Source: Patescibacteria group bacterium
GTDB lineage: Bacteria > Patescibacteriota > Minisyncoccia > Phycocordibacterales > UBA9973
Direction: 5' to 3'
Assembly (NCBI GenBank): GCA_038063915.1
Contig: JBBTUE010000001.1
Span: forward strand, 23,619-87,618
Length of the DNA: 64,000 bases
Of the stretch, positions 9,998-58,289 are shown one piece after another; positions within the stretch are counted from its first letter, which is position 1, and each line of letters starts with the position of its first letter. A program made the translations under genes and the position numbers. Under the pieces are notes generated by a model. It saw nothing but the letters and a program-made list of their open reading frames with translations. It had not been told where the DNA came from and searched no databases.

Positions 9998-10372
9998 TGA
10001 ATTGTAGAGTACTCTAATTTTTGCTCCGGCAATACCGTCTATCGGTAACCCTTTGGCTCTCTGGAATTCCTCGAGAGCTTTCTTTGTCAGTGGCCCAAAA
10101 CGACCATTAGCTTTATTCTGAGCAAGAGCGATAGCAGCAGGGCCTGTAGCTTTTTTAATTAGAAATTTCTGCAATGCGAGGACGTCACTACCGGCCATTC
10201 CAAATTTAAGATTTCTTTTGACTACTTTTCTAGACTTGGGTTTAGCTGAGTGTGGAGCAGTCTCTGGAGTGATAAGAGTCGGAGTACTAATTAATCGCTC
10301 AGCAGAAACAACAAAAGGACTGCTAATGAAAAATGAAAACATTATTAAAATTGGTATAAATTTTTTATTCAT
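9995..10372 (-). CDS. secreted peptidoglycan-binding domain (PG_binding_1) protein
   Basis: Signal peptide (MNKKFIPILIMFSFFISSPFVVSA) and C-terminal LKFGMAGSDVLALQKFL...GRFGPLTKKALEEFQRAKGLPIDGIAG (PF01471-like). Overlaps the upstream M23 gene by 8 nt. Confidence 0.6.
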   Translation of the reverse strand: MNKKFIPILIMFSFFISSPFVVSAERLISTPTLITPETAPHSAKPKSRKVVKRNLKFGMAGSDVLALQKFLIKKATGPAAIALAQNKANGRFGPLTKKALEEFQRAKGLPIDGIAGAKIRVLYNS

Positions 10373-11513
10373 TTATTTCTAAGTCTTTATCATTAATTTT
10401 AAGTCCAATATATGGGTTGCGAAGTTCTCCATGGAAACCGAGGTGAAGATGTGGGCCAGTCGATTTACCAGTTGATCCTACATAGCCGATGATGTCACCC
10501 TTCTTTACATCTTGCCCTGCAACCGCAACTACTTTACTCATATGACCAAATATCGCCTGGCGACCGTCATTAAAATCAATCACAACATACAATCCATACC
10601 CACCGTTGTAACCACTTTTATCAGCAATCAAAACATTACCATCCTGAACTGCATATATAGGAGTGCCCTTCGGTGCGGCAAAATCGTAAGCCTGGTCAGC
10701 ATGCAATCCTTGGGAAACTCGGCCTATGCCAACAGGGAATGGCCATATATAGTCTCCACTTATAGTACCTGTCGGTTGACCAGTAGGTGTATTTTCTTGT
10801 TTTGGTTCTTCAGGAATATTACTCATTGGGTTAGGAATGACAACAGGAGTACTTGGAGGTGTAACAGGTGGAAGTGGTTCAACTATTGGGGTAGTAGGAG
10901 TGAGAGCTGTGTCGTTTATTTGTTTTTCTTCTTTTTCAATAACTACTTTCTCTGTATCAACTGGTTTAGTTTTATTTTCCTTTTTAGTTTTGTCGTCTAT
11001 CGGTTTATCGGTAGCCTTTATTGCAAGAATAGTTAGTTTCTGGCCGATTTTTAGTAGGTCGCTTTTCTTTAGGTCAGCATTTGAGGCAATAATGGTGCTT
11101 TTAGGGACTTTAAGCCTATTACTTATACCTTCTAGTGTGTCTCCTTTTTTAACAATATAAGTCGTAATTTTAACAGATGAGTCATATTTTTCAAGCTCAG
11201 AATCAACTCCGAGTGCACCATTGTTGGATAGGAGTGCTTCATTTAGTGCTATAACTGGGGGTTCATCTTTAATATTTTTAAGATCGGGGTTAATCGAAGA
11301 CTCTAGAAGGGGTACATTTTGAGAGTTGTGAATTATACTTTCTTCCTCATTAGGTATCTCTGAAGCTTGAGTTTCTGGGCCAACTATCTTGGTAATTAAG
11401 TTAGAGAAAAAGCCAGCATTTGTATGACTTGGCTTCATTAATATATATATAAATATAAATGCAAACAAACAGACCTTTAGCATTAAAGGCTTGATAAATA
11501 AGGATATTTTCAT
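10365..11513 (-). CDS. LysM-domain M23-family peptidoglycan endopeptidase
   Basis: LysM (YIVKKGDTLEGISNRLKVPKSTIIASNADLKKSDLLKIGQKLTIL) plus an M23 core (GYNGGYGLYVVIDFNDGRQAIFGHM...GDIIGYVGSTGKSTGPHLHLGF). Start is probably MKISLF at 11513 (signal peptide) rather than the track start at 11591. Confidence 0.75.
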   Translation of the reverse strand: MKISLFIKPLMLKVCLFAFIFIYILMKPSHTNAGFFSNLITKIVGPETQASEIPNEEESIIHNSQNVPLLESSINPDLKNIKDEPPVIALNEALLSNNGALGVDSELEKYDSSVKITTYIVKKGDTLEGISNRLKVPKSTIIASNADLKKSDLLKIGQKLTILAIKATDKPIDDKTKKENKTKPVDTEKVVIEKEEKQINDTALTPTTPIVEPLPPVTPPSTPVVIPNPMSNIPEEPKQENTPTGQPTGTISGDYIWPFPVGIGRVSQGLHADQAYDFAAPKGTPIYAVQDGNVLIADKSGYNGGYGLYVVIDFNDGRQAIFGHMSKVVAVAGQDVKKGDIIGYVGSTGKSTGPHLHLGFHGELRNPYIGLKINDKDLEINE

Positions 11514-11847
11514 CTTATGGTTATTTGGGCAACCAAAATCACCATTAGAATCTTTTGTTTTGAGTAAAATAAGCCTAAATAAATTAACCACACTATATCA
11601 CCCCCTTTGGGAATTACAGTACGACCGCGTGAGCGAGGGCTGTAATTGTATAAGTAATGTTAGTGTGATTGCTACGATCGTCTCGGAGTGGCCGTAAAAT
11701 ATGGCTTTTACATTCTTTTCGGTAGTTTGGGACTGGATTAGTCCTTATTTACAAGGGTAGCCCAGATGGGGCAGTTAGTCAACGGAGTAATACACAGGAC
11801 CACTTGGAGACTGTTTCTACCCTTATAGTACAACACAGATTTAGGAT

Positions 11848-11877
11848 TTGACAAGTGGGGTAGGTGTGTTGTATAAT
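11848..11877 (+). promoter_or_regulatory. consensus sigma70 promoter (TTGACA-18 nt-TATAAT) for the giant-gene pair
   Basis: TTGACAagtggggtaggtgtgttgTATAAT. The first ATG downstream (11885) is 7 nt after the -10 box. Confidence 0.55.
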
Positions 11878-11884
11878 GGAACAC

Positions 11885-14473
11885 ATGTCAGGACAACCAT
11901 GGAAAGAAGTTCTACGTGCAATCACTTCAAACGGGGGTGGTGGCAATTCTAATGAAGATAACAAAATAAGTAAACAAGAAAGGAAAGCGAGGGAAAAGGC
12001 AGAAAAAAAGTCTGTTCCTGCCCTACAAAACAAAGCTAGAGAAAAAAGATATCCTGTTGTTAATATTGAAACTGGAGGCGATCTAAACGTAGATAGTCCT
12101 CTTATTGAGCTAAGGGAGGTTGGAGACTACAACTCGATTTTGTTGGATGCTAATCCGGGGAAGAAAAAGAAGTCTGAACATTTAGGCAAGTTTAGCCCTG
12201 AAGAAAAGAAGGAGAAAAAATATATTAGATCAGGGGAGTATATGGAGCACTTAAAATCGAAAGTTTTTATGGATCCAGGCCATGCAAGAATGGCAGAGAA
12301 AACTCTGGACTATCTTGGAAAAAAGACATTCACTAAAGAATTAGTAGAAAAGTTATTCAGTGGGTACCCTGATGAGTCTACAGGGACAAGTAATAATGAT
12401 ATAATAAAGAAACGGAACATGCCTGGAAAAAATGAACTCAAAAGTAATGTTGTTGTAGAAAAAAAAGCACCTAATGCTGAAGATTTGAAGTTGCAGAATG
12501 AAATATATAGAGAAGCCGATTATTGGAGAGACATATTGAAAAGAAAATCTGGTGATAAGAAAAGGGATGAGAGGAATATGAGAGAGATGGAGACTTTCGA
12601 ACGTAGCCCTTATGGCTGGATGAAAGAAGCACTCACAAATGCTATTAATAAAAATAAAGCATTACTATCTGGTACTACTGATACTCGTGAACGACAAAGA
12701 ATAGATGAAAAGATTAGGATAAACACAGAAAGTTTAAATAATATTGATCACGCTTTTGAAAAGAATTTACCGCTGAAATTAGACAGGAAATTCACCCCAA
12801 ACGAAATGCCTCTAGGTAAAGACACGATATTCAAAGTGGGTGATTGGACAAAAGAAATAAATGACTATGTTGATGGAAAAAGCTCAAAATACTCTATAGA
12901 AGGGGTAGTTCAACGTCGGAATGACGACTTTATAGTTTTAAAAAATGACAAAGGGGAAACTGTTGAGATAAATCTCTGGGACTTGGCAGATGGAGTAAGG
13001 GAAAATCTCCCAGGGAAAAATGAAGGTGGAAAAGAAAAACAAAGTAAGTTTGAAGAAATAAAAAAAGGGTCTGTAGTTAAAGTTAGAACAGGTGGAGTAA
13101 AAGGCCCCGTGACTACCTACGAAATCTTAGATATTAAAGACGGTAAAGTTTTCTTTAAGAACCTGACAAAAAAACACGGAGGTAGTATGAATATGTCTAT
13201 AGAAGGCATGCAGGCTTTCCTTTCTGGTAGTGGTACAGAATTCCTAGTAGAAGAAAAAAAGGTTTTCGAGAAAGCAAAAGATCCTGTGGTTGAAAATAAG
13301 ACTATCCCAAAACCAAAGCAAACTGTCCCTGAGACTAAACCAGTCGTTATCGGAAGTGTAGATGATGTAAAAAGAATAGATAATGACCTTGGTTATGTTA
13401 ATGCTGCAGTCTTAACGAGAGAACTGAAGATTGATAGAAATAAGGCAGAGGAGTTATACAGAGAGTACATGGCAGGCAAGCCAAATGAGGCGACAGATAA
13501 TAAGACAAAAAAGAAGCCAGGAAAAGGTAAGGTGGAGAAAACTCCTGAAACTAAAACGGCTACGACCGAAGAAAAAACTGACAAAAAGGAAGAGAAAAAG
13601 AAGGCGGAGAAAAAAGAGAAGATCGTAGGACTAAGTGAAGAGAAAATGACAGAGATACTTGGATACACAAAGTCTGTAATGGAAAAGTGGAAAGCTGAAA
13701 AAGCACAAGATGATATTGAAAGACAAAAAGAGGAAGCGGAGGAAAAACAAGACGATGCAGAAAGGCAAAAAGAGCTTTATGAAATAAAAGCTGGTGAAGA
13801 AAAGCTAGCAGAACTCATGAAACTCCGAGAAAAACTCGTCGCTGAAGAAGGATTAAAAGAGAAACCGGAGGAAAATATTAATATAAGAGAGAGATTGGCC
13901 GACAATATTGCGCTACTAAAAGCAAATAAAAAGAGAGCCGAGGACGAACTGGCAAACACAAGTGGGCTCAGACTTTTAAAGGTGCTCGGACTCAATAAAT
14001 CAATAAAAAGAGCGAGAGTAGAATTATTGAGAATGGAAAAAATGGATCTTGAGCTCGATAAAAAAGAAAAACCACTACTCTACTATGCGGCCAGCAGAAT
14101 TACAAACGACTATGTACTACAAGAACTCCGAAATAAAGACCTGGGTGAAGTTATTGATTTGCGTCGTCTAAAAAACACCAATGAATACGAATGTAAAACC
14201 AAATATTTACATGGGACTAGAGAGAATGAAGGATTTTATGAATTCAACCCATTTGGGTTTGTAAAAGTTATAAAGAATGTAAAAGAAATACGCGACGATA
14301 AGGGAGTCAATATAGATTCAGAAGATGCTATATATAAAATACTGAGTCCAGATTTTAAGGTTATCGCCAATGACATAAAGGGGTACACCGAGGCGACGAG
14401 GCTTTATAATCAAGCAACTGAACAATATAAAATGAGGGTCGAAGAAAGATTCAACCAATTAAATAAGAAATAA
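11885..14473 (+). CDS. giant K/E-rich hypothetical protein (no TM predicted)
   Basis: Approx. 860 aa, extremely charged and lysine/glutamate-rich with long predicted coiled coils (KEEKKKAEKKEKIVGL..., ERQKEEAEEKQDDAERQKELYEIKAGEEKLAELMKLREKL). A consensus sigma70 promoter (11848-11877) overlaps the track start at 11864; the first ATG after the -10 box is at 11885. Confidence 0.5.
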   Translation: MSGQPWKEVLRAITSNGGGGNSNEDNKISKQERKAREKAEKKSVPALQNKAREKRYPVVNIETGGDLNVDSPLIELREVGDYNSILLDANPGKKKKSEHLGKFSPEEKKEKKYIRSGEYMEHLKSKVFMDPGHARMAEKTLDYLGKKTFTKELVEKLFSGYPDESTGTSNNDIIKKRNMPGKNELKSNVVVEKKAPNAEDLKLQNEIYREADYWRDILKRKSGDKKRDERNMREMETFERSPYGWMKEALTNAINKNKALLSGTTDTRERQRIDEKIRINTESLNNIDHAFEKNLPLKLDRKFTPNEMPLGKDTIFKVGDWTKEINDYVDGKSSKYSIEGVVQRRNDDFIVLKNDKGETVEINLWDLADGVRENLPGKNEGGKEKQSKFEEIKKGSVVKVRTGGVKGPVTTYEILDIKDGKVFFKNLTKKHGGSMNMSIEGMQAFLSGSGTEFLVEEKKVFEKAKDPVVENKTIPKPKQTVPETKPVVIGSVDDVKRIDNDLGYVNAAVLTRELKIDRNKAEELYREYMAGKPNEATDNKTKKKPGKGKVEKTPETKTATTEEKTDKKEEKKKAEKKEKIVGLSEEKMTEILGYTKSVMEKWKAEKAQDDIERQKEEAEEKQDDAERQKELYEIKAGEEKLAELMKLREKLVAEEGLKEKPEENINIRERLADNIALLKANKKRAEDELANTSGLRLLKVLGLNKSIKRARVELLRMEKMDLELDKKEKPLLYYAASRITNDYVLQELRNKDLGEVIDLRRLKNTNEYECKTKYLHGTRENEGFYEFNPFGFVKVIKNVKEIRDDKGVNIDSEDAIYKILSPDFKVIANDIKGYTEATRLYNQATEQYKMRVEERFNQLNKK

Positions 14474-14476
14474 TAT

Positions 14477-17395
14477 ATGAACAGAGAATCAATGCCTACA
14501 ACCTTAGCCGAAGTTGATAAACTTATAGCTGAAACCCAAAGCAAACTCGAGGCTGATACAAAGACGTACGAGGCTAATGAAAAAGCAAGAGATGCAAGAG
14601 GAGCAACTAGGGAAGCCAACGAAAAAATCAGAACCGAAAAAGAAGCCTCACAGGAGACAGAAAAAGAAGCGACCATAGATAGAGTCATTGCAGAAGGCGC
14701 TACAAAAGAACAGGCAAATGCTGTGCGTGAGAGTCTGGGTATGGAAGAAGATTTGAGAACTCCAGAGCAAAAAGTCAACGACGCGCGTAATAAATTTATA
14801 AAAGAATCTTTAAAACTTCGAGAGGAAACTCGTAAACGGACAAAAATAGCAAAAATAAAGAACTCAATTCTAAATGTATTCAGAAGTGATAATAAACAGA
14901 AGATCGCTCCTGAAGGAGTTTACCCTACCGAAAAACACAAGGAGGCAAAAAAGTCATACGATAGAGCCAAGACTGAGATGTATAATGACATGCTCAATAA
15001 AAAACGGATAGAACTAAAAGCGACTGGACTAAGTGGTAAGAAATTAGAAAAAGCTCTAACTGAGTACAAAACTACAGAAATAATACTCAAGACTATGCCA
15101 GAAGAACGTCAAAAAATAATTGACGCTAAAGTAGAGAAACCTGCTTTGTGGAAAAAGCTCGTGAGAGGCTATATGAGTATAAAGCCAAAATGGAAAAGGG
15201 TAGCACTCAGTACCGCACTATTCTTGGCACCAGCTGCTGCTGGAGCGATAGGATCTGCAGCTGCACTTTATTCACTTGGAGGATTGGCAGCTATTAAATT
15301 TGGTAGAAGTATGGCCATAGGTGGAATCAGCGCGACACTCGTCAAAGGAATAGATTGGTTGAAACGAGGTAAGGATGCAGAATTCAAAAGACAACAGGAG
15401 ATAAAAACAGCACAACTACAAGGAGAATTCGCAAAAGGTGAGATGACGGTGGAGCAGTTGGAAAAATATGAGAGTGGATCTGAAAGTATCGAAGATGCAA
15501 GTAGAAAGAGGTTGCGTAATCGTATGATACTTAAAATGAGTGTGGGTATTGCTATTGGTGCTGGAGCGGGTGCCTTATCCCACTTTGCTATGGATGGAGG
15601 AGGGCATCATGATGCGATACAACCTGACAATGGTACAGTTACACCAGATGGACCGGAAGTAAATACAAATATTCATAATGTAGTAGAAGCTGATGTCCTA
15701 AAAGGTCATGGAGCAATCCAGACAATATCTGAACTTCAAGATAAACTGAGAGCAGAATATCCAGATGTAACTCAAGCTCCGCCGAGCGTACAACATATAT
15801 TAAGCATGAAAGCTGATCGACTTGCTATCGAGTACGGCATGTTCAAGCCGGGAGATGATGCAGAAAGTGCAATTATGAAACTCGGTTCGAAGTTTGAAGT
15901 AGACACAGACGGAAATGTATCCTTCCACCAAGAAGGAACTACTACTCTATTAGAACAAGGAACTGACTCAGATGTCAGTCAAGTATATGGAGGTAGGATG
16001 ATTGATGGCGACCACTCTGGAAGAGTAGATGTAGATCGAGACCTTCAATCAGAATATGAGAAGATGCACCCACAGACAAATCCAGAAGGAGTAAAAACTT
16101 CTGATATGACTACTGAAGAATACAAACTGGCTCACCCACAAACAGATCCAGACGCACTACCAGAAGGAGTTAAGGTTTCCGACTTACCAGATGAATACAA
16201 ATCAACTCATCCATATTTAGATGAAAATACTCAGACACCCACTGAAGCTTCAACAACTCCAAAAATAGATGAGATAAAGACTAACCCACCAATTGAACCA
16301 TTAAAGGGCAACTGGAACACTGGTAATGAAGGCGTGATTCGTCCTCTGCAAGGCGACTTCAACATTGGAGGAGCAAGTACGCTCGGCACAGTAGGAGTCG
16401 GTCCATCAAATACTAGCGAGATGATCGATAACGGATTCACAAAAGAAGTACCAATGACAAACGTCGCTTCAAATGAAATTCTAGCCAGTCAGAAAATAGA
16501 TAATATAATAAACGTTGAACACGGTCCGAAGAATATAGATATTGACCGTATAGAAAAAGATGTTAGACACTTGGAAACTGTGAAGGATGTGAGGGAAACA
16601 TTTGGCCGTTCAAATGTAGTTATAGACAAGCCAGACGACAACACTATAGATGGAATAAAATACGATGAATGGAATAAATCTGTAAATGACACATTTGAAG
16701 ATCATAATGTGAAATTTACTTCGTACGAAGACTATAACAAGGAACGTGAATTGCAAGGACTCTTTGGCGAAAGCAATAAAGCAGTAGAATATACAGACGG
16801 CAAAAACGAGAACGTCATAACAACGACATATTTCCGCGACCCAGTTGCTCACCCTGAGTGGAATACTATAAGTAAAATCCCAGCTAAAAACTTCTTTGAA
16901 GACAATATCAACGAGACTACTAAACTAGTAGACGGAACTACTATATCAAAGGAGAACCTTGACCAACTAGTAGAAAAAGGAGTCTTAAATGATAATTATA
17001 AATTTACTCACCACGACGAGCTTGAACGTCTATCGAAAACCTATGAAAAGTTAGTTCCTAAAATTGAAGAAGCTCTTGCGAATGACAAACCGATTGGTAA
17101 CGAGACAATGGAGTCTTATATAGAACGTATTACTAAGAAAGTTTACCAAGCAGATGATGGAACACTCTATGGAGTCAAAGGCAACGTAAACTGGGACAAT
17201 CAAATTGCAAGATCTATAAACACAAGTCAAAATATATCCAATTATAGTGGTAATACCCCGACTACTAGCATCGCCCCTGGATATGGCCTATGGCAGACAA
17301 GTAGTGAATACAACAGGCAGATAACCAGTGATGTACTTAGGAGAGTTTTAGGATATAATGACATGACAACTGTAGTCCGTAATCCATTCAGATAA
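14477..17395 (+). CDS. giant hypothetical membrane protein with internal short repeats
   Basis: 972 aa. Charged coiled-coil N-terminal 240 aa, predicted TM segments (ALSTALFLAPAAAGAIGSAAALYSLGGLAAI; MSVGIAIGAGAGALSHFAM), and a C-terminal ~600 aa with three HPQT(N/D)P...EGVK(T/V)SD repeats. It starts 4 nt after the previous giant gene. Confidence 0.5.
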   Translation: MNRESMPTTLAEVDKLIAETQSKLEADTKTYEANEKARDARGATREANEKIRTEKEASQETEKEATIDRVIAEGATKEQANAVRESLGMEEDLRTPEQKVNDARNKFIKESLKLREETRKRTKIAKIKNSILNVFRSDNKQKIAPEGVYPTEKHKEAKKSYDRAKTEMYNDMLNKKRIELKATGLSGKKLEKALTEYKTTEIILKTMPEERQKIIDAKVEKPALWKKLVRGYMSIKPKWKRVALSTALFLAPAAAGAIGSAAALYSLGGLAAIKFGRSMAIGGISATLVKGIDWLKRGKDAEFKRQQEIKTAQLQGEFAKGEMTVEQLEKYESGSESIEDASRKRLRNRMILKMSVGIAIGAGAGALSHFAMDGGGHHDAIQPDNGTVTPDGPEVNTNIHNVVEADVLKGHGAIQTISELQDKLRAEYPDVTQAPPSVQHILSMKADRLAIEYGMFKPGDDAESAIMKLGSKFEVDTDGNVSFHQEGTTTLLEQGTDSDVSQVYGGRMIDGDHSGRVDVDRDLQSEYEKMHPQTNPEGVKTSDMTTEEYKLAHPQTDPDALPEGVKVSDLPDEYKSTHPYLDENTQTPTEASTTPKIDEIKTNPPIEPLKGNWNTGNEGVIRPLQGDFNIGGASTLGTVGVGPSNTSEMIDNGFTKEVPMTNVASNEILASQKIDNIINVEHGPKNIDIDRIEKDVRHLETVKDVRETFGRSNVVIDKPDDNTIDGIKYDEWNKSVNDTFEDHNVKFTSYEDYNKERELQGLFGESNKAVEYTDGKNENVITTTYFRDPVAHPEWNTISKIPAKNFFEDNINETTKLVDGTTISKENLDQLVEKGVLNDNYKFTHHDELERLSKTYEKLVPKIEEALANDKPIGNETMESYIERITKKVYQADDGTLYGVKGNVNWDNQIARSINTSQNISNYSGNTPTTSIAPGYGLWQTSSEYNRQITSDVLRRVLGYNDMTTVVRNPFR

Positions 17396-17432: not shown

Positions 17433-17747
17433 ATGTTTACAGAAATAAACGACAATATAATAAAAACTTTAGGGATAGATGCTCTACCTGTTGAAAAACA
17501 AAAAGAAGCAATGGAGAAATTGGGGGCAATAGTCTACCAAGAAGTTATGCTTCGCGTACTTGATATCATGAATGATGAAGACAAAGATGCTTTCGAGAAA
17601 TTAATAGAGAAAAACCCTGATCCAGAGATAATGTTCACATATCTGTCCGAGAAAGTACCGACTATTGATGCAATTGTGTCCGAGGAAGCTGAGAAATTAC
17701 GGGCAGAGAGTGCAGAAATAATGAGTGAAATAGGTAAAGAAGAATAA
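17433..17747 (+). CDS. small acidic alpha-helical protein (resembles CPR-restricted DUF5663-type small proteins; from memory, unverified)
   Basis: 104-aa ORF: MFTEINDNIIKTLGIDALPVEKQKEAMEKLGAIVYQEVMLRVLDIMNDEDKDAFEKLIEK.... Confidence 0.35.
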   Translation: MFTEINDNIIKTLGIDALPVEKQKEAMEKLGAIVYQEVMLRVLDIMNDEDKDAFEKLIEKNPDPEIMFTYLSEKVPTIDAIVSEEAEKLRAESAEIMSEIGKEE

Positions 17748-20547: not shown

Positions 20548-21420
20548 ATGGATAAGGAATACCTACCGAGTAAGAAGTTTATAGTGAGCGTAGCAACTAT
20601 TGTGATAGGTGTCTCGTTAATTTTTGGTATCTATAAGTTGGTAATATTTATAAAGAATAAGGTAGGTAAAGGAAAGTCGCCGACTGCGCTCATTGTAAAA
20701 GATTTGGTAGAGAAAGATGCCAACGAAAACGGTATCCCAGACTGGGAGGAATCATTATGGGGACTTGATCCCACAAAAAGTGGCTCCGAAAATAAGGAGT
20801 TTATCCTGGCAAAGCGGGCTACTATCGCAAAGGCTCATCCAGAATTAGTAGATAATACCAAGCCAGTATCAGAAAACGAAGCACTATCAAGAGATTTCTT
20901 CTCTATTATTATGTCACTACAGCAAGGTAATGCTCTAGACCAGACTTCAATTCAAGCAGTTTCAGAAGCAATAGGGAAGGACATAGAAGCCGAACCAATT
21001 GCCGATATATACACTAGGAAGACGGTAAAGGTTGTAGAATCTAACCCAAATACTATTAGTGACTATTACGGAGCATTTATCAATCTTGTAATAGAGTATA
21101 GTGATAAAAATATTGGCGACGAGCTGACCTTTATAAATCAAGGACTACAAAACAATGACCCAAAGGCCATAAAAGAAATAAACTCAATATCAAAGGCATA
21201 CAAAGCTTTCGGGGCTGAATTTATAAAGGTCCCAGTACCCAATACCTTGGTAAATACTCATATAAGTCTAGCAAATAACTATGAAAAGGTAGGGCAGATT
21301 GTTGCCAATATGACGGATTTACTCGGCAACCCATTAAATGGCATAAAATCATTTATAAATTATAAAAAATACAGCGATGCTCTGACAGATGATGTAGATA
21401 AACTTACTGCCGACCAATAA
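20548..21420 (+). CDS. membrane-anchored hypothetical protein (first gene of T4SS-like cluster)
   Basis: N-terminal TM (FIVSVATIVIGVSLIFGIYKLVIFI), then NGIPDWEESLWGLDP (thrombospondin-type-3/Ca-binding-like DxDxDG-WEE motif common in CPR surface proteins). Confidence 0.4.
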   Translation: MDKEYLPSKKFIVSVATIVIGVSLIFGIYKLVIFIKNKVGKGKSPTALIVKDLVEKDANENGIPDWEESLWGLDPTKSGSENKEFILAKRATIAKAHPELVDNTKPVSENEALSRDFFSIIMSLQQGNALDQTSIQAVSEAIGKDIEAEPIADIYTRKTVKVVESNPNTISDYYGAFINLVIEYSDKNIGDELTFINQGLQNNDPKAIKEINSISKAYKAFGAEFIKVPVPNTLVNTHISLANNYEKVGQIVANMTDLLGNPLNGIKSFINYKKYSDALTDDVDKLTADQ

Positions 21421-21449
21421 TATGTTATACTATAAGGGATAAATCTATT

Positions 21450-24182
21450 ATGAATAAAGGAATTACAAGAAAAATCGTTTCAACTTTAATCATCGCTTTA
21501 TTCCTAGTGGAAGCTGTTTTACCATTACAGACATATGCCGCTATCTCGACAAACGGTTTTACGACTCCTACGGGCCAAGCATCTACCCCTCTAAACTACG
21601 ACAATCCAAATAAGGGTGACAACCCATTTAAACCAAAAGTTAAAGATTTCTTGAACCCTCAGCTACTATCCCAAGTTGTTGGGTGTACTGGTATTGTAAA
21701 CAAGGTTTCGGACAAAGTACTTGCAGCTGTGGAGAAGGTTGCCGGTAAATTAATAGGCAAGGCGAAAAAGGCCGTAGAAGACTTTGTAAAAAAACAACTA
21801 GCAAAAAAGGTGAAAGATAACGTAGTTATTGTAGTAGTAGATGTCGTCAAAACAGCTTTAGCTGCAACAGTCACTTCACCTGGATCAGGATTTGGAAATG
21901 CAGCTGGTGATGCATTAGAGGACGTTGGAAGAGAGACTATAACGGCAAGAGATGCAAATGACGCAGGTGTGCAGAAAAGACAGGACAAAGCAGCGGAGGA
22001 TAAACTTGCAAAAGATAAAGACGACGAAAGAAAGAGAGTGCAAAAAGAATACAGAGAAAACTGCTTAAACGGTATCGCAATTCAACTTGCGAAAAATCAA
22101 CTCTCAGCAATGACCAAGCACACCATGAGTTGGATAAATACTGGATTTAGTGGAGATCCATTCTATGTCAAAAATGTAAGTAAATATATGGACGATATAG
22201 AAAGGGGAATCTTAGCAGAAGAAACAAGACTATTTAAAGGTGCAGGTAGTAGTATTAATTATCCATATGGTCAGGACTTTGCTCGAGGTGCAATATCGAC
22301 AGAGCAAGCATCTAAAAACTTTGCCGAATCAACAAAACAAAATCTTACCAGTTACCTCGCACCAGGAAAAACCGTTGATGATTTTGCGAATGATTTTTCC
22401 GCAGGTGGAAAACGTCCGTGGGATGCATGGTATTCGCTAACTCAAGATGATAATAATAACCCGTTCGGCTTTGCGGCAAATAATGCTAATAATATTATCG
22501 ACAAACAAGCAGACGCAAAGGAGCAGGCGAAGGCGGAGTTAGTAGAAGGGGAAGGGTATAGACCGCAAAAGGTCTGCAAGGAGTGGGCAAAACCAGACAA
22601 TAATTATGACGCTTCTATGTATTCAACCCCAGAAGAATGGTTTGCTTCGGAAGAATATGCCTCTTTATCTAAAACTAAATGCCTAGTGTATGAGACGGTT
22701 ACCCCTGGTAGTACTATAAAAGCTAAAGTTGATACATACATAAATACACCAGAGAATCAGCTCACATTAGTGCGGACAATGAACGATGCCCTAAACGCTT
22801 TTTTCACTATGATACTTGGCAAATTTACAAGTAAAGGAGGACTTGCTGGACTAAATCCAGCATTAAATATCCCTTCTGGGACTTCTGTTGGTGAAGAGAT
22901 AACGAGAAACATAAGATTCGATGAGGATGGATATGTAATGGTAGAAGATACTCCATACGGAGAAGGAATAATAGCTTCAAATACTACAACTGGAGTAAAT
23001 GTTGGTAATGGCTTCACTACACCTACAGCAACTAGTGGAGGTGGAGTAACGAATAGTTCCCATGCGTATATACAAGATGATGGTTTTGATATCACAAAAG
23101 ACCTTGGTAATATTTACGACCAAGACGGAGTGCTAATCAAAAAAGGTGTTATTCAAAATCAATACGACTACATAGATGCAATGGGTATCTATAGATCAGT
23201 CATTGCCGACGTACTGCCTGCTCTTGGCGAGCTTGATTATTGTATCCCGGGCCCGAATCCAAATTGGAGAGAGAACTCCAAAGAAGCGATAGACGCGTAT
23301 CTGGAGACCCTAACAGGTATAGGAGACGTGGGAGATGTGGGAGGACAACAATTTGAATATGCTCCAGAGGGTGCTTACGAATATCCTAAGCCGGTACCAG
23401 AAGTTCCTGCTAAAAAGAAACTATCATTCATTAAGAGATTGGCCATTATTATTAGTCCTACGGCGAGAATGAACGAAACGAGAAAGAAGTTTAAAGAGAT
23501 AAAGGAAAGAAGACAAAACGAAAAAGAGAGGGCTGTCATAGAGGCAGAGAATGAGAGAATTAGACTAAAGAACGAAAAAATAAGAGACGATATGTTAAAG
23601 GGTAAAAGACCACTCGACCCAATATTTATAGCCAACACTATTGGAAAAGATCGAGATTCTATTTTGAGAATGATTTCTCCAGAGAATACTGGGCTCGACC
23701 CCGTAAAACTTTTGGCAACCTTAGATGACTTTGAGGCATCAATAGATGCAACTTACGGCCTATCTGGTCCTATGCAAAACTACTGGAGCGGGAACAGTAA
23801 ATACTTGCAGATGTCACAAGAGGGCTTGAATCTGACAAAGAATATACCTGACTATATAGAAGAGATTGAGGCGGCCAAATCCGACTCGAGAGATTTGTTA
23901 GCCGAAGCAACTCCAAATCTCGACAAGCTAAAAGCAATTCAAATCAAAGTAAATGAGATAATAGCTGCCGCCCAGAAAAGAAGAAATGAGAAGGTGAGAA
24001 AGCAAGGTGGCCCCACTCTTAGCTCAGCATGTCTATTAAAAGAAAAGGTAACTTACACGGATTACAACGGCAAGATTATGTCTTCAGTTAGCGACAGGCC
24101 ACTGCCAATTATTAAAAGTAGGGAAGAAGTAATCAAAGACTACGCCCCTGTAGATAATTCATTAATAAAAGTATCCCAATAA
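21450..24182 (+). CDS. large secreted hypothetical protein (910 aa)
   Basis: Signal peptide (IVSTLIIALFLVEAVLPLQTYAA), then a long extracytoplasmic polypeptide with no catalytic motif recognisable. First large gene of the T4SS-like cluster; possible surface/adhesin component. Confidence 0.4.
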   Translation: MNKGITRKIVSTLIIALFLVEAVLPLQTYAAISTNGFTTPTGQASTPLNYDNPNKGDNPFKPKVKDFLNPQLLSQVVGCTGIVNKVSDKVLAAVEKVAGKLIGKAKKAVEDFVKKQLAKKVKDNVVIVVVDVVKTALAATVTSPGSGFGNAAGDALEDVGRETITARDANDAGVQKRQDKAAEDKLAKDKDDERKRVQKEYRENCLNGIAIQLAKNQLSAMTKHTMSWINTGFSGDPFYVKNVSKYMDDIERGILAEETRLFKGAGSSINYPYGQDFARGAISTEQASKNFAESTKQNLTSYLAPGKTVDDFANDFSAGGKRPWDAWYSLTQDDNNNPFGFAANNANNIIDKQADAKEQAKAELVEGEGYRPQKVCKEWAKPDNNYDASMYSTPEEWFASEEYASLSKTKCLVYETVTPGSTIKAKVDTYINTPENQLTLVRTMNDALNAFFTMILGKFTSKGGLAGLNPALNIPSGTSVGEEITRNIRFDEDGYVMVEDTPYGEGIIASNTTTGVNVGNGFTTPTATSGGGVTNSSHAYIQDDGFDITKDLGNIYDQDGVLIKKGVIQNQYDYIDAMGIYRSVIADVLPALGELDYCIPGPNPNWRENSKEAIDAYLETLTGIGDVGDVGGQQFEYAPEGAYEYPKPVPEVPAKKKLSFIKRLAIIISPTARMNETRKKFKEIKERRQNEKERAVIEAENERIRLKNEKIRDDMLKGKRPLDPIFIANTIGKDRDSILRMISPENTGLDPVKLLATLDDFEASIDATYGLSGPMQNYWSGNSKYLQMSQEGLNLTKNIPDYIEEIEAAKSDSRDLLAEATPNLDKLKAIQIKVNEIIAAAQKRRNEKVRKQGGPTLSSACLLKEKVTYTDYNGKIMSSVSDRPLPIIKSREEVIKDYAPVDNSLIKVSQ

Positions 24183-24192
24183 TAAGAAATTT

Positions 24193-24963
24193 ATGGAAAA
24201 TAATCCTAAAAAAAGTAAAGCTCTAATCATAACGATAATCGCGATCGTTGTGCTTGTAGCTGCTCTATACTTCTTGTTTAAAAATAGTGACAAAATTTTT
24301 GGCACAAAAGATACAGCCATTAGTAGACTATTTGCACCATTGCTTGGCTCGTCAAAAAAGAAAGCGGTGGATACTGTTAACAATACAAATACAGAACAGG
24401 GTGGGGGTACTACCGAAGACACCAGTGGAACTGTCAATAACGGGACAAATGAAGTAGTGGATGTAAATACAGGCAACAACCCGATAACAGGCGGTGTAAA
24501 CCCTATAACCCCACCACTAACACCTCTTCCGACTCCTGGAAATGATACTGCCAGTGGTGGATATACTCCTGCGCCAATTACTAACAACGATATATCACCG
24601 CTGCCTCCAATTAGAGCTCCTATCGATGAGCCGAAAATCTGCCCTGTTGAAGAAGAATTGGAATACACTAACGCAGAAAAAGACCAGCTTGCAGAACTGC
24701 TTCGTCAATATTATCTAATAGCTCCAGAGCTCAAAACTGCAGGTGAAGTCGCGATGATTAACGACGATGTAAGAAGAAATCAGGATCTAATAGATCATGC
24801 TGATACTTTAACTCTGCAATGTACTGCACAAAAGGTGAATCCAAAATACGCAGGCCCTAGTGCGACAAAGAATAATCCATATTATGGAAACTTAAATATC
24901 AAACCTGAGTTCTATGCTCCTAAACAATTCAATAGTTTAGAAGACGAGCTCAACATTTGGTAA
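24193..24963 (+). CDS. membrane-anchored hypothetical protein with Thr/Pro/Gly-rich linker
   Basis: N-terminal TM (ALIITIIAIVVLVAALYFLF), then a low-complexity NPITGGVNPITPPLTPLPTPGN region and a C-terminal globular part. Confidence 0.4.
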   Translation: MENNPKKSKALIITIIAIVVLVAALYFLFKNSDKIFGTKDTAISRLFAPLLGSSKKKAVDTVNNTNTEQGGGTTEDTSGTVNNGTNEVVDVNTGNNPITGGVNPITPPLTPLPTPGNDTASGGYTPAPITNNDISPLPPIRAPIDEPKICPVEEELEYTNAEKDQLAELLRQYYLIAPELKTAGEVAMINDDVRRNQDLIDHADTLTLQCTAQKVNPKYAGPSATKNNPYYGNLNIKPEFYAPKQFNSLEDELNIW

Positions 24964-24967
24964 CTAC

Positions 24968-27619
24968 ATGATAAGAAAACTCATCCCTTCCATCTTAATA
25001 GTTCTCATAGCCGTGAACCTATTCGCGCCTTTTACGCTTGGGATTGATAAAAAGAATAATATAGAAATAAAAAAATCAGTCGCGGAAGCTGACTTGTCTA
25101 TAACATTAGTAAAAATGAAGAGAACTAAAACATCAATCTCTTTTGGTTTTGATATTACACAACTAAGTAAGACAGATAACTTTGGCATAATAGCAGTGGT
25201 CACAAATAAAAAGGGAACTACTATGTCGAAAGAGTCTTTGGAGTTCATAAACTTCCAAGTTGGGTTAGGTGCTGGTAAAGACTGTGGAGCAATTAATGAT
25301 ACCCTTTTCACAATACCAAAAGATTCTAGAGTTGCTGGTGGTAGAGACGGTTGTGGTAGTAACTGGTTAAAAGATAATAGAAATGAGGGCTTGGCTACCG
25401 TAACTGTACCAAATTTAGTCAAAAATACACCTTATTATATAAGTTTTTTCGGCTATGCTGGAGATAAAGATATTGAAAAAAGTCTTGCCTTTCCAATATA
25501 CGACAGAGAAATTCGCACAACTTCTGATAACGAAGAAGATGATACTATAATGGAGGAACTTGGGACAACAAACTCAGACTCAGGGTACTTACCTTGGTGT
25601 ACTAGAGCTGTTTTTAAAGTTAATATTGGGGGTTGTTTTGCCCAAATTCTATACACAATTACTTTCAAGCCAACTTCATTTATTTTTGGGTTAGCTGGGC
25701 AGTTCTTTGACTTTACCTTCTTTTACTCCATAAGTGATAGCTCGTACCGATCAGGATTCGTAGTAGAGGGGTGGGGAGTAGTGCGTGACTTTGTAAATAT
25801 GTTCTTCATATTTGTCCTCCTCTATATTGCATTCTCGACAATATTATCTCTTCATGGATTTAAAACAAAAGAGATGATCATAAACGTTGTCATTATTGGA
25901 CTTCTTATAAATTTCAGTCTTTTCGCCACGCAAGTAATTATAGATACATCGAATATTCTGGCGCGCGTTTTCTATAACTCTGTAACGTCAGGCAGCGTAG
26001 ATGAAAGTACAAAGGAGTTTAAAGAAGAGAGGGGTGCACAAGGGGAGATTCAGCTTTCGGCACAAATTGTTAATATGGTTGATCCTCAGAAGCTTATAAT
26101 AAAAGCTTCAAGGGTCGGATCTACAGATAGAGGAACTACGGATAATTCGAATCAGTTTTCACGAGGTATAAGTGTTGGAACATTTATATTAGTGACTTTA
26201 CTTGCATCCGCGGTGAATGTAGTGGGTATAATTGTTTTTCTTTCTGTTGGCCTTATATTCTTAGCCCGAGTTATAGGCCTTTGGTTTGCGATGATATTCG
26301 TGCCATTCGCATTCTTCTCATATACCGTACCTGCCATGCAAGACATAGAAATGATTGGTTGGAAGAAGTGGTGGCCGGAAACTTTAAAATTGGCATTCCT
26401 AGCACCAATCTTTATGTTCTTTATGTATCTAATCATTAAATTCTTGGGTGGAAAAGAATTCTTGAAGCTCAACGGAGACAGCGGGGCAGCATTTATAATA
26501 GCAATCATTGTGCCTTTCATTTTTATAATGATTCTCCTACTCCGAGCAAAAGGTATTGCAAAAGATTTGTCTGGGAAAATTGGAGCAGCAATTACAAAAG
26601 GTGCCGTTGTAGCGGGAGGCCTTGCAGTTGCTGGTGGTGGATTGGCAGCTGCGGGTGGAGCAGCCCTTGGTAGGGGTCTGATAACGAACCCAATGAAAAT
26701 GATGCAATCGAGCCAGGCTACTAGAACTGCTGCACTAAAGAATTTCAGTATGGTTAAACCAGCTACTTGGGGCAAGGCTATGAGCGCACGTATGGCGAAT
26801 TTTAGTGTTAAGGGTGGCGGTAAGGGAGTTGGCACAGGAGTATATGATGTAGCTACCAGAAGAGAAATCAAAAGGGAGGGATCTAATAAACTAAGAGATA
26901 GACTACTTGGTATTAAAGATAGAAAAGCTGACAAGGGTCATGCATCACAATTACTCGACGAACAAGCGGATAAAATACAGAAGGGTGCAAAATACTCAGA
27001 TCTTTCTGCTCCAGAACAAGCTAAAGCTAAGACAACTATTAACAACAACGAGGTATCAAAAGCTTTGTTTGGTAAGGAATCTGATAAATTAGATAACTCA
27101 CAGATTTCTATGCTTTCAGGTATTGTAAATACAAACGGAGCAATCAATACTGCAGCACTGTCTACAGCAGCAACTACCTTGGGTAAAGATATATCGAAAT
27201 TCTACGATCCTACTAATGCTGACCCAACAAAAAGAGCAGTAAAGGATGCCAATCATCATGAGAAGATATACAACAAACCAGATAAAGATCACGTGGGTAA
27301 CGCGCTTGCATTCGCAGCGGGTGGAACGTACGACATAAGAAATATGAAGAGTGGTGGCCTTACTGCACTTGGCATTGCCTCAGCATTCCTAGGAATCGCT
27401 CCTGTATTTGCGCTCGCTATGTCAGCTCATACATCTGGCGCCCTAAGGACAGGTTTGAAAAAGTTCACAGGAGTAGATCATGGATTCTCGCAAAAGGACT
27501 TCTTGAAAGACTTGAGTCACACTTTAGACACAGCATTAAGTAGTATTAAAATTAGTGTAAAAACCGACGGCAAGGGTCACAGTGATGCAAAAGCAAAAGT
27601 AGGTGGGGGAGGACATTAA
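24968..27619 (+). CDS. TrbL/VirB6-like polytopic T4SS membrane protein with N-terminal secreted domain
   Basis: 883 aa: signal peptide plus a ~220-aa extracytoplasmic domain, 5-7 predicted TM helices (e.g. FVNMFFIFVLLYIAFSTILSL; VVIIGLLINFSLFATQVIID; FILVTLLASAVNVVGIIVFLSVGLIFLARVIGLWFAMIFVPFAFF; LAFLAPIFMFFMYLIIKFL; FIIAIIVPFIFIMILLL) and a Gly/Ala-rich hydrophilic tail (GAVVAGGLAVAGGGLAAAGGAALGRG) as in TrbL. Position next to the PrgI/VirB3 and VirB4 genes supports the call. Confidence 0.5.
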   Translation: MIRKLIPSILIVLIAVNLFAPFTLGIDKKNNIEIKKSVAEADLSITLVKMKRTKTSISFGFDITQLSKTDNFGIIAVVTNKKGTTMSKESLEFINFQVGLGAGKDCGAINDTLFTIPKDSRVAGGRDGCGSNWLKDNRNEGLATVTVPNLVKNTPYYISFFGYAGDKDIEKSLAFPIYDREIRTTSDNEEDDTIMEELGTTNSDSGYLPWCTRAVFKVNIGGCFAQILYTITFKPTSFIFGLAGQFFDFTFFYSISDSSYRSGFVVEGWGVVRDFVNMFFIFVLLYIAFSTILSLHGFKTKEMIINVVIIGLLINFSLFATQVIIDTSNILARVFYNSVTSGSVDESTKEFKEERGAQGEIQLSAQIVNMVDPQKLIIKASRVGSTDRGTTDNSNQFSRGISVGTFILVTLLASAVNVVGIIVFLSVGLIFLARVIGLWFAMIFVPFAFFSYTVPAMQDIEMIGWKKWWPETLKLAFLAPIFMFFMYLIIKFLGGKEFLKLNGDSGAAFIIAIIVPFIFIMILLLRAKGIAKDLSGKIGAAITKGAVVAGGLAVAGGGLAAAGGAALGRGLITNPMKMMQSSQATRTAALKNFSMVKPATWGKAMSARMANFSVKGGGKGVGTGVYDVATRREIKREGSNKLRDRLLGIKDRKADKGHASQLLDEQADKIQKGAKYSDLSAPEQAKAKTTINNNEVSKALFGKESDKLDNSQISMLSGIVNTNGAINTAALSTAATTLGKDISKFYDPTNADPTKRAVKDANHHEKIYNKPDKDHVGNALAFAAGGTYDIRNMKSGGLTALGIASAFLGIAPVFALAMSAHTSGALRTGLKKFTGVDHGFSQKDFLKDLSHTLDTALSSIKISVKTDGKGHSDAKAKVGGGGH

Positions 27620-27637
27620 TGGTAAAAAATTAATCTC

Positions 27638-28705
27638 ATGGATCAAACACAATTACAACAACAAATAGCTCTATATTACTCAAAACTTTCACCAGATTTA
27701 CAGGCGGTATTTTCTAGTATGAAGTGGATGGACAGTCTCAGGATTATCAACACTAAATACACTTTAAACGAAGCTCAAATACAGACGCTGGGAACAGAAA
27801 CTACTTTACTACTGATTGGTATCATAAACTTAGAAGAATTCGCGGAAACTCTATATAACGAGCTCGGGATAGAGAGTGATGTGGTAGAGAGAATAATAAC
27901 AGAGGTAAACGATTCTATATTAGAACCAATACTACCATCCCTTGATCAAGCATATCAAAATCATGTTGGATCTCTAGTAGCAGAGAAATACGAGGGATTG
28001 GAAAAATTAGACGAGCGTTTCCTTAAGCTGCCGAAAGAAGTCCAAAAAGCTATTAGCGAATCTCACTACCAGCAGACCCTATACACTATCGCAAGTAAAC
28101 AAAAACTTTCTATGGAGCAGATGGGAAGTCTTGAAGAAGCTACGAATAAGGTGTTGCTTGGTATCATTCACCCAGACAAGTACGAAACTGAGTTAAAAGA
28201 AAAACTAGGCCTGCCTGCAGATAAAACCACAGAGCTTGTAAATGACGTGAATGAAGGTGTGCTGAAAAATATCCGAGAAATATTAAAATCACACTGGAAC
28301 GACGGTAAAATCGGAGAAGTAAAACCAGAAGATGAAGTACCTATACCTCCATACGCACAAGTGAAAACTCCTGAAGCGCCAAGAGTTGAAATATCTGTCC
28401 CAAGTATAAATATAGCAGAAGTGCCAATCGAACTTCCTAAAGGAGAATCAGATATATATCAGAACGCAGGAATAGAGATGGTAAGTGAAGAAAAATCAGA
28501 CAAAGAAGACTTGGCCAAGAGTATTATTGGTAGTAAGCTGAGTCACTCTGTCGTTAGTAAACCTATCCTCAGCGATCATTCATTACCAAAAGTAAACTCT
28601 GCTCAGCCAGCCCAGCAACCTCCGGCTCCTGCTCCAGCACCAAGTAGCCCAGCTCCTGTTGCTCCTCCAGCACCAAAGCACGACCCTTACCACGAAGCCA
28701 TATAG
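27638..28705 (+). CDS. hypothetical cytoplasmic protein with Pro/Ala-rich C-terminus
   Basis: 355 aa, no TM; C-terminal QPAQQPPAPAPAPSSPAPVAPPAPK. Embedded between the VirB6-like and VirB3-like genes. Confidence 0.4.
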   Translation: MDQTQLQQQIALYYSKLSPDLQAVFSSMKWMDSLRIINTKYTLNEAQIQTLGTETTLLLIGIINLEEFAETLYNELGIESDVVERIITEVNDSILEPILPSLDQAYQNHVGSLVAEKYEGLEKLDERFLKLPKEVQKAISESHYQQTLYTIASKQKLSMEQMGSLEEATNKVLLGIIHPDKYETELKEKLGLPADKTTELVNDVNEGVLKNIREILKSHWNDGKIGEVKPEDEVPIPPYAQVKTPEAPRVEISVPSINIAEVPIELPKGESDIYQNAGIEMVSEEKSDKEDLAKSIIGSKLSHSVVSKPILSDHSLPKVNSAQPAQQPPAPAPAPSSPAPVAPPAPKHDPYHEAI

Positions 28706-58213: not shown

Positions 58214-58289
58214 TGGTGCCCTCGGTAGGAATCGAACCTACGACCATCTCCTTAAAAGGGAGCTGCTCTACCAACTGAGCTACGAGGGC
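58214..58289 (-). tRNA. tRNA-Lys (anticodon UUU), CCA encoded
   Basis: Minus-strand GCCCTCGTAGCTCAGTTGGTAGAGCAGCTCCCTTTTAAGGAGATGGTCGTAGGTTCGATTCCTACCGAGGGCACCA. 7-bp acceptor stem, GCTC/GAGC D-stem, anticodon loop CTTTTAA (T33, anticodon TTT, A37), GTAGG/CCTAC T-stem with TTCGATT loop. One G-A mismatch at 27-43. Confidence 0.85.

Follow-up and report, generated by a model that had tools for sequence, protein, structure and literature searches.

We report here the analysis of two long neighbouring genes, A and B, and of a small gene C behind them, in a stretch of 64,000 nucleotides (nt) of DNA from a Patescibacteria group bacterium (contig JBBTUE010000001.1); this whole stretch is called the window below. 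Based on gene order, natural gene fusions and predicted structures, we tentatively propose that the products of A and B form a Paceibacteria-specific membrane-spanning complex, in which B would be the hub and A a docking partner, with a role in the envelope or cell wall. To this reading we give somewhat less than an even chance. The three genes are as follows, with protein lengths in amino acids (aa).

11885-14473, + strand: gene A, 862 aa, MEK7585648.1 ('hypothetical protein'), predicted to be cytoplasmic.
14477-17395, + strand: gene B, 972 aa, MEK7585649.1 ('hypothetical protein'), a predicted three-pass membrane protein.
17433-17747, + strand: gene C, 104 aa, MEK7585650.1 ('hypothetical protein'), an acidic protein of the DUF5663 family.

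The three open reading frames (ORFs) are co-directional, and the NCBI products, from a metagenome-assembled genome (MAG) labelled 'Patescibacteria group bacterium', match them exactly. The gap between the stop codon of A and the ATG of B is 3 nt (TAT); a preliminary description of this DNA, which placed the genes 4 nt apart, was thus right about their adjacency and not about the spacing. Neither A nor B matches any Pfam, NCBIfam, PHROG or PADLOC family. An exhaustive HMMER search of 1.84 billion representatives with A gave 87 matches, and a word-indexed homologue search with A, either in full or minus its Lys/Glu (K/E)-rich linker, gave A itself only. Among the 87 matches, about 24 cover only an N-terminal module (N-module, aa ~50-535) and about 59 only a C-terminal module (C-module, aa ~706-862), while both modules together, as in A, are present in two further proteins (P0019 and P0089). 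A global alignment of all matches misaligned the N-module, and the two modules were therefore analysed apart; for finding the loci, alignment A3 was too diverse and a reduced alignment was used instead. The parts of A are as follows.

12032-13489, + strand: N-module, with a hidden Markov model (HMM) core at aa 192-532; the part matched alone by the ~24 representatives (alignment A4).
13490-13999, + strand: charged K/E-rich linker, aa 536-705, partly helical or heptad-like.
14000-14473, + strand: C-module, with a conserved core at aa 733-862; alpha/beta, with two long flanking helices.

The C-module is the part of A that is linked with B. In six lineages (the window, L001, L004, L012, L041 and L043), a C-module gene directly precedes a B-family gene on the same strand, with a spacing of 1-4 nt where it was read. 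L039 and L042 are apparently contigs related to L041, and in them B is located 0.6-1.2 kb downstream. Wherever a metagenome contig reaches far enough past the C-module gene, a B-family gene is found behind it, and a DUF5663 gene follows B in all three metagenome contigs that extend past B. Moreover, in three cluster representatives (P0060, P0063 and P0078) the linker, the C-module and a B-like membrane and extracellular part are naturally fused into one protein, which places the C-module on the cytoplasmic N-terminal side of B. It is mainly from this gene order and from the fusions that we propose that A docks on the cytoplasmic side of B. The recurrence of the pair with a DUF5663 gene in other genomes, which was to be looked for according to the preliminary description, is found, but the conserved pair is the C-module of A with B and not the whole of A.

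Judged from its predicted structure, the C-module behaves as a portable, independently folding domain. The AlphaFold2 model from a 53-sequence alignment has a predicted local distance difference test score (pLDDT) of 95.8 and a predicted template modelling score of 0.87, with long helices at both termini and an antiparallel sheet between them. Invariant residues lie in its motifs NEGFFEFN..GF and AIYKI.GPDG. The C-module profile matches no PDB sequence. The nearest PDB folds are PsiB (3nct), AP2, WGR and UPF0339/YegP (2k49 and 3bid), which have in common with it a small antiparallel sheet against helices, and the motif AIYKIxGPDGxIIAxxIxGY is loosely like YegP-type repeats; on the model, the C-module is without a solved structural relative. 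In 54 of 65 matched stretches (about 61 representatives) it ends at most 4 aa from the C-terminus, in proteins of 84-1122 aa. Its N-terminal partners vary. For example, in P0073 the partner is a PP2C phosphatase (E 1.5e-12), and among P0023, P0026, P0028, P0043 and P0061 a domain of ~400 aa is joined either to the N-module or to the C-module. This ~400-aa domain has no Pfam match and no PDB match in a single-sequence search, and a DHH phosphoesterase identity, for which a DHH-like motif could be cited, is not claimed for it. In addition, P0058 joins the C-module to a tail domain otherwise found on N-module proteins. As read from these domain arrangements, module shuffling is extensive.

A itself appears to be a product of such rearrangement. 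The N-module and the C-module are unrelated in profile-profile comparison (probability 0.2%), and the former, which matches nothing in Pfam or among PDB sequences, is made up of a helical region that carries the motifs PYxW and IPLKL, two short stretches rich in beta structure and a small helical segment, LGF(x)N...EAExLxxEY. A match to the Lamin tail domain (PF00932) at aa 328-409 was rejected, with 18.1-18.7 bits against a cut-off of 34.3 in one of 25 N-module members. In L001, L004, L008 and L044 the N-module is a separate gene of 700-828 aa beside the gene of an M23 peptidase. In the split layout of L001, L004 and L044 this N-module protein, with its own different C-terminal domain, comes first after M23, a C-module protein of 514-541 aa lies directly upstream of B, and between the two are a GH25 muramidase gene, a YkuD-like gene and small genes. 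The correspondence can be followed along A: aa 55-532 match the first gene after M23 in L004 (E 2e-52), aa 628-661 share 59% identity with the linker of the C-module protein that is separate in L004, and aa 780-862 match the C-terminal end of what is encoded just before B in L001 and L004. On the simplest reading, A would be a fusion made by an in-frame deletion that joined the 5' portion of an N-module gene to the 3' portion of a C-module gene, with the junction probably inside the linker, which has an ER/K-rich stretch at aa 594-646.

The composition of A is in line with the extreme charge that was first noticed. It is the most charged protein in the window (39.2% Lys, Arg, Asp and Glu; 27% Lys plus Glu), followed by C with 36.5%, and it has no signal peptide or transmembrane (TM) segment. 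The same claim does not hold for B, which has 30% charged residues overall, similar to UvrD, and reaches 41% only in its first 241 aa. The long coiled coils predicted for both proteins shrink to short heptad-like stretches in a crude heptad scan (A 598-638 and 827-861; B 19-67 and 151-191).

We then turn to the architecture of B, for which a word-indexed search gave 16 homologues at E<=1e-3 with identities of 35-44%. Its parts are as follows.

14477-15193, + strand: predicted cytoplasmic N-terminal region, aa 1-239, 41% charged, a variable coil.
15194-15598, + strand: membrane core by hydropathy, with a TM hairpin at aa 240-289, a loop at aa 290-348 and a third TM segment (TM3) at aa 349-374.
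15662-16027, + strand: conserved ectodomain, aa ~396-517, a small alpha/beta domain of ~120 aa.
16067-16225, + strand: short linear repeats in a predicted disordered extracellular linker, pLDDT <50.
16226-17392, + strand: predicted extracellular C-terminal region, variable, mostly low-confidence or disordered in the model.

The TM segments noticed earlier are borne out by hydrophobic stretches at aa 240-289 and 349-374, the former being Gly/Ala-rich and long enough for a transmembrane hairpin. The membrane core is the most conserved part of the family, and the N-terminal region in front of it holds a conserved juxtamembrane helix (YKATEIL..ERQKIID..). TM1 and TM3 are each preceded, and TM2 is followed, by a Lys/Arg-rich flank, and the last 600 aa of the protein are acidic. 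From the hydropathy and this positive-inside pattern, B is predicted to pass the membrane three times with the N-terminus inside and the C-terminus outside, so that its C-terminal ~600 aa would be outside. The loop is basic and carries a GxIxxEEYEK motif, whose likeness to SHOCT (PF09851) is a resemblance only: 2 of 17 members match, with a best E of 0.016, and the B of the window is unmatched. An AlphaFold2 model of aa 380-972 from 20 sequences is poor overall (mean pLDDT 52) and mostly disordered, with the exception of a mostly confident small alpha/beta domain at aa ~400-500 (block pLDDT 74-91 bar one short dip). For the ecto region, Foldseek against PDB gives nothing at E<1, the PDB sequence profile search nothing at E<=10 and Pfam nothing, and the B-family profile matches no PDB sequence; a sub-threshold hint points to the non-catalytic domains of the M23 peptidases Csd3, NMB0315 and VC0503 (4rny, 3slu and 2gu1). 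The three HPQT(N/D)P-x7-EGVK repeats described before are in fact two full copies with different spacers, HPQTNP-EGVKTSD (spacer 0) and HPQTDP-DALP-EGVKVSD (spacer 4 aa), and a degenerate third, HPYLDE. No DNA-level repeat is found beneath them by Tandem Repeats Finder, and a related motif, (F/Y)xKxxPQxxPxGV, is repeated in P0001, P0002 and P0004. The C-terminal region is common to the closest homologues (P0001-P0005) only.

The genomic context of the two proteins suggests an envelope or cell-wall theme. A LysM-M23 peptidase gene is beside the locus in all 30 loci of an interval survey, which was anchored on an RNA element in the leader of that gene (see below), and in the window it is divergent to A. 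A PG_binding_1 gene also adjoins the locus in the window, in L006 and L007 the gene just ahead of B is a YkuD L,D-transpeptidase gene (36.4 and 30.1 bits; cut-off 23.4), and L004 has a GH25 muramidase gene within the locus. Regarding taxonomy, the named homologues are from Paceibacterota, Nomurabacteria or Patescibacteria MAGs together with some records labelled uncultured Saccharibacteria, and those of B from Paceibacterota or Nomurabacteria MAGs. The early suggestion that the pair is specific to the candidate phyla radiation (CPR) therefore agrees with the data: all named homologues are CPR-labelled MAGs or records, and none was found in IMG/VR viral contigs. That the pair would escape annotation by homology is equally supported, since Pfam, NCBIfam, PHROG, PADLOC, PDB sequences and PDB folds provide no annotation for A or B.

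These observations can be combined in the following model. B would be a membrane hub, with its charged N-terminal ~240 aa and basic loop facing the cytoplasm, three TM segments as an anchor, and the conserved ectodomain and the long, disordered, fast-evolving tail facing the cell wall and the surface. A would be the cytoplasmic partner, made from the same, probably leaderless, transcript as B, and the 3-nt gap may be read as a sign of coupled translation. It would dock onto the cytoplasmic face of B by its ~130-aa C-terminal module, a putative portable targeting domain whose cargo could be a PP2C phosphatase, the ~400-aa domain or the N-module; the in-frame deletion would have joined the last of these to the C-module from genes that are separate in relatives, where they flank peptidoglycan-enzyme genes. 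Judging from this context, the complex may organise or signal cell-wall remodelling or division at the membrane. The structural, cell-surface or host-interaction role suggested at first is conjectural: of the two proteins, only the C-terminal ~600 aa of B are predicted to be outside the cell.

A number of observations weigh against this proposal. B is without an adjacent C-module gene in L003, L006 and L007, so the partnership is either non-obligatory or its partner is encoded elsewhere, and in L018 the C-module ORFs are followed by a 475-aa ORF that B-family HMMs do not recognise. The contact between A and B is a proposed pairing, read from gene order and fusions. The topology of B comes from hydropathy alone, and both TM2 and TM3 are weakly hydrophobic, with much Gly and Ala. 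Genomes without B at this site also have the M23 gene with its RNA leader, and the interval from that leader to uvrD varies from none to about five genes among 30 genomes, so the proximity to cell-wall genes could be inherited synteny and not shared function. Finally, A and B lie in one reading frame (TAA TAT, 14471-14479), and so do the equivalent genes in L004 (TAA TTT), while those in L001 and L043 are out of frame. A programmed readthrough of the TAA was accordingly dropped as a candidate, and the in-frame layout carries no weight because it is not conserved.

The reading that survives best besides the envelope complex, though we judge it unlikely, is that an episymbiotic CPR cell would use B mainly as an adhesin on its surface or for contact with a host, with A tethering B to cytoplasmic structures and the cell-wall neighbours being coincidental. 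The ~600 aa of B predicted to be extracellular, its hypervariable C-terminal region and the PQ..P.GV repeats in disordered sequence would all suit such a protein; species differ strongly in their gene content at the locus, a common trait of surface proteins; and CPR-enriched families have been linked to cell-cell interaction (PMC6744442). However, no adhesin-type domain is found in B, with no Ig-like, lectin, cadherin-like or beta-helix match, and its conservation peaks in the membrane core and the juxtamembrane cytoplasmic segments, not in the exposed tail. Furthermore, a PP2C phosphatase as partner of the C-module fits signalling better than adhesion.

Another explanation, which we regard as improbable, is that A and B are unrelated, fast-evolving 'filler' genes between M23 and uvrD, and that their adjacency and fusions are by-products of deletion in a compact genome. 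The survey of the 30 loci gives this some ground. The interval from the M23 leader RNA to uvrD contains none to about five genes, with B-family genes in about 13 of the loci; in L011, L024 and L031 it has no genes at all and M23 is followed directly by uvrD. As seen in L003-L032, the interval is a hot spot of gene gain, loss and fusion. A itself resembles a deletion product, and B stands without a neighbouring C-module gene at three loci. Against this, the order of C-module and B is kept in six lineages despite a protein identity of only ~35-45%, and three separate fusion clusters have the modules in identical order. In addition, the C-module is strongly conserved and confidently folded, and is therefore under selection.

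Cargo of a phage or mobile element inserted beside uvrD, such as tape-measure-like or injection-related proteins, is hardly credible for this locus. The region is variable, and the size and charge of its proteins, their partly helical nature and their TM-like segments may recall some tape-measure proteins, but neither A nor B has a PHROG match at E<0.1, and no relatives of B or of the C-module were found among the 2.9 million contigs of IMG/VR. An integrase or a flanking tRNA is not evident, the sole tRNA being at 58214, the G+C content of the locus matches that of its flanks, and the order of the flanking housekeeping genes is conserved. Upstream are genes for PNPase, a DksA-type zinc finger and a ComM/Mg-chelatase-like protein and the divergently transcribed PG_binding_1 and LysM-M23 genes, and downstream are uvrD/pcrA and rsmA. 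The search with PADLOC gave PglX as its sole match (13 bits, E 0.023, over 38 residues), which does not place the locus among defence systems.

An artefactual origin of the long ORFs, through misassembly into fusions or as non-coding purine-rich sequence that stays open by chance, is refuted for practical purposes: the skews over 12-14 kb (GC skew 0.28, AT skew 0.34) and the low-complexity K/E sequence could suggest it, but the 862-aa ORF of A recurs unchanged on 6 contigs, taken from assemblies of NCBI, Logan and ENA that are independent of each other, which excludes a misassembled fusion, and 87 (A) and 16 (B) protein homologues keep the domain boundaries, one domain folding confidently. The concern raised earlier, that the ORFs might be fusions of shorter genes, therefore turns out half right, as A seems to be an evolutionary fusion (split in L001, L004 and L044) and is not an assembly artefact.

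Coming back to the envelope complex, a more specific and more doubtful version of it would take the C-module as a new fold that acts as a cytoplasmic address tag, recruiting interchangeable enzymes or adaptors to the B hub, which would be coupled via its ectodomain to peptidoglycan. If this were true, the locus would encode a CPR-specific system for organising or signalling in the envelope, replacing canonical division or elongation scaffolds that are absent from the reduced genomes. The closest functional analogies are found among scaffold and docking proteins, and they are analogies of layout. MapZ/LocZ is a mid-cell division landmark in streptococci, and MapZ is tied to Ser/Thr phospho-signalling (StkP/PhpP). 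Like B, it is generally known to have a cytoplasmic N-terminal region, a membrane anchor and a conserved extracellular domain facing peptidoglycan, and its tie to phospho-signalling parallels the PP2C fusion in the C-module family. Unlike B, it has one TM segment and not three predicted ones, and it shares no sequence or fold similarity with B, for which we propose a dedicated partner and coupled translation. EzrA, DivIVA and GpsB also have charged helical membrane-linked cytoplasmic regions, as is generally known, and are hubs for cell-wall enzymes as B may be; however, they lack a large extracellular part, which B has, and the heptad-like stretches of A and B are short. Pfam-A and NCBIfam models of EzrA, DivIVA, GpsB, MapZ and RodZ match neither A, B nor the B family. 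The dockerin-cohesin system, again by general knowledge, offers a comparable arrangement to the C-module and B, with a small C-terminal module on varied proteins that is genetically tied to one scaffold.

The CPR, or Patescibacteria, make up a large share of bacterial diversity, and little is established on how they build, divide and remodel their envelopes; for many of the functions concerned, homology gives no annotation. The families of the N-module, the C-module and B are outside the known kinds, with no relative in Pfam, NCBIfam or PDB sequences and no significant one among PDB folds. As unannotated lineage-specific families are common in CPR (PMC6744442), the surprise in this is moderate. 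The locus nevertheless provides a testable module, comprising the fold of the C-module, B as its candidate partner and alternative cargo that hints at what may be recruited to the membrane. In this way three 'hypothetical proteins' are turned into subjects of specific interaction and localisation experiments, and profile definitions become available for three unannotated families.

The expression of the locus can also be discussed from its sequence. The promoter is as follows.

11848-11877, + strand: sigma-70-type promoter TTGACA-N18-TATAAT, 12/12 match to the consensus.

The preliminary description had pointed to this TTGACA-18-TATAAT ahead of the pair, and it proves to be the sole perfect match in the 64-kb window, against a chance expectation of 0.11. 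The frame of A opens at 11864. Since the first ATG (11876) is overlapped by the -10 box, the usable start is the ATG at 11885, which gives 862 aa as in NCBI and is located 7 nt past the end of the -10 box. The same layout, TTGACA-N18-TATAAT-N7-ATG, is present before the first gene of the locus in L001 (the N-module gene) and in L003 (the B gene), and this recurrence argues that the promoter is real. All three sites thus have the consensus hexamers and the start codon ~7 nt past the -10 box that would be looked for in a leaderless sigma-70-type gene, and with the start codon so placed the mRNA of A is probably leaderless. A scan of the window found no terminator-like site on the + strand after B or C, so transcription may run on into uvrD, and A, B and C would be the minimum unit. 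Hence the operon of two genes with a small gene behind it is upheld as a co-directional string but is doubtful as a self-contained unit, because the string continues into uvrD/pcrA and rsmA. On the minus strand, a promoter-like TTGTCA-18-TACTAT (11825-11854) overlaps the -35 box of the A promoter back-to-back, so that a single divergent control region may serve as the starting point of both the M23 leader RNA and the A-B transcript.

Gene C exceeds the gathering cut-off of DUF5663 (PF18908) just slightly (24.0 bits against 23.7; E 5.8e-5; 78 of 84 profile positions), in agreement with the DUF5663-type protein recognised at first. Its orthologues beside B have precomputed DUF5663 matches in L003, L004 and L007 and weak ones in L001 and L006. 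It follows B in the window and in L001, L003, L004, L006, L007, L008, L026, L039, L042 and L043, and does not in L009 and L015. C is highly conserved, with an identity of 65-79% where the B proteins of the same genomes have ~40%. A single-sequence search of C against PDB gave no match, and DUF5663 is a family without known function, of which no mention was found in the searched literature.

Between the M23 gene and the promoter of A there is, in addition, a conserved structured RNA, which lies in the 5' leader of the M23 gene.

11590-11805, - strand: conserved structured RNA, ~215 nt, 5' leader of the LysM-M23 gene.
10365-11591, - strand: M23 ORF, 408 aa from a GTG start, running into the conserved RNA.

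Gene callers place the start of M23 at 11513, on a Met 26 codons inside this ORF, for a protein of 382 aa; the RNA structure is then ~75 nt away from the start codon. The RNA is also present in L003, L004, L006 and L008-L032. Its signature, TACAGTACGACCGC-N9-12-GCTGTAAT, is found in the genomes of 25 GTDB species, in every case next to the M23 gene. Where the M23 ORF (read stop-to-stop) is not cut by the end of the locus, the signature lies ~25-40 nt past the upstream end of that ORF, and this position holds regardless of the gene on the other side. RNAalifold gives 30 pairs, 14 with compensatory changes, on the sense strand of M23, and 11 pairs with none on the opposite strand. In a pair-count test 92.6% of the cells are paired, compared with 37-48% when the partners are slid, and 0 of 500 shuffles reach the observed value on any of five measures. 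Rfam 15 has no match for it, even at E<=10. Candidate cis-regulatory RNAs upstream of lysM or M23 genes have been described in other phyla, namely lysM-TM7, lysM-Actino, lysM-Prevotella and M23 (PMC5737381), and the present RNA looks like a further, distinct element beside them. We therefore regard it as a candidate for a new cis-regulatory or riboswitch-like element of a cell-wall hydrolase, and as such it would be a separate candidate regulator of cell-wall turnover in the same organisms.

Two other regions of the window deserve mention. Downstream of rsmA, at 20548-28705, there are five ORFs without a Pfam match (290, 910, 256, 883 and 355 aa), and ORFs of similar size after rsmA in L001, L004, L006 and L007 make this another conserved block of unannotated CPR proteins. 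Further downstream, a 774-aa ORF at 50294-52618 has 7% charged residues, by far the minimum in the window, and is thus presumably a very hydrophobic membrane protein.

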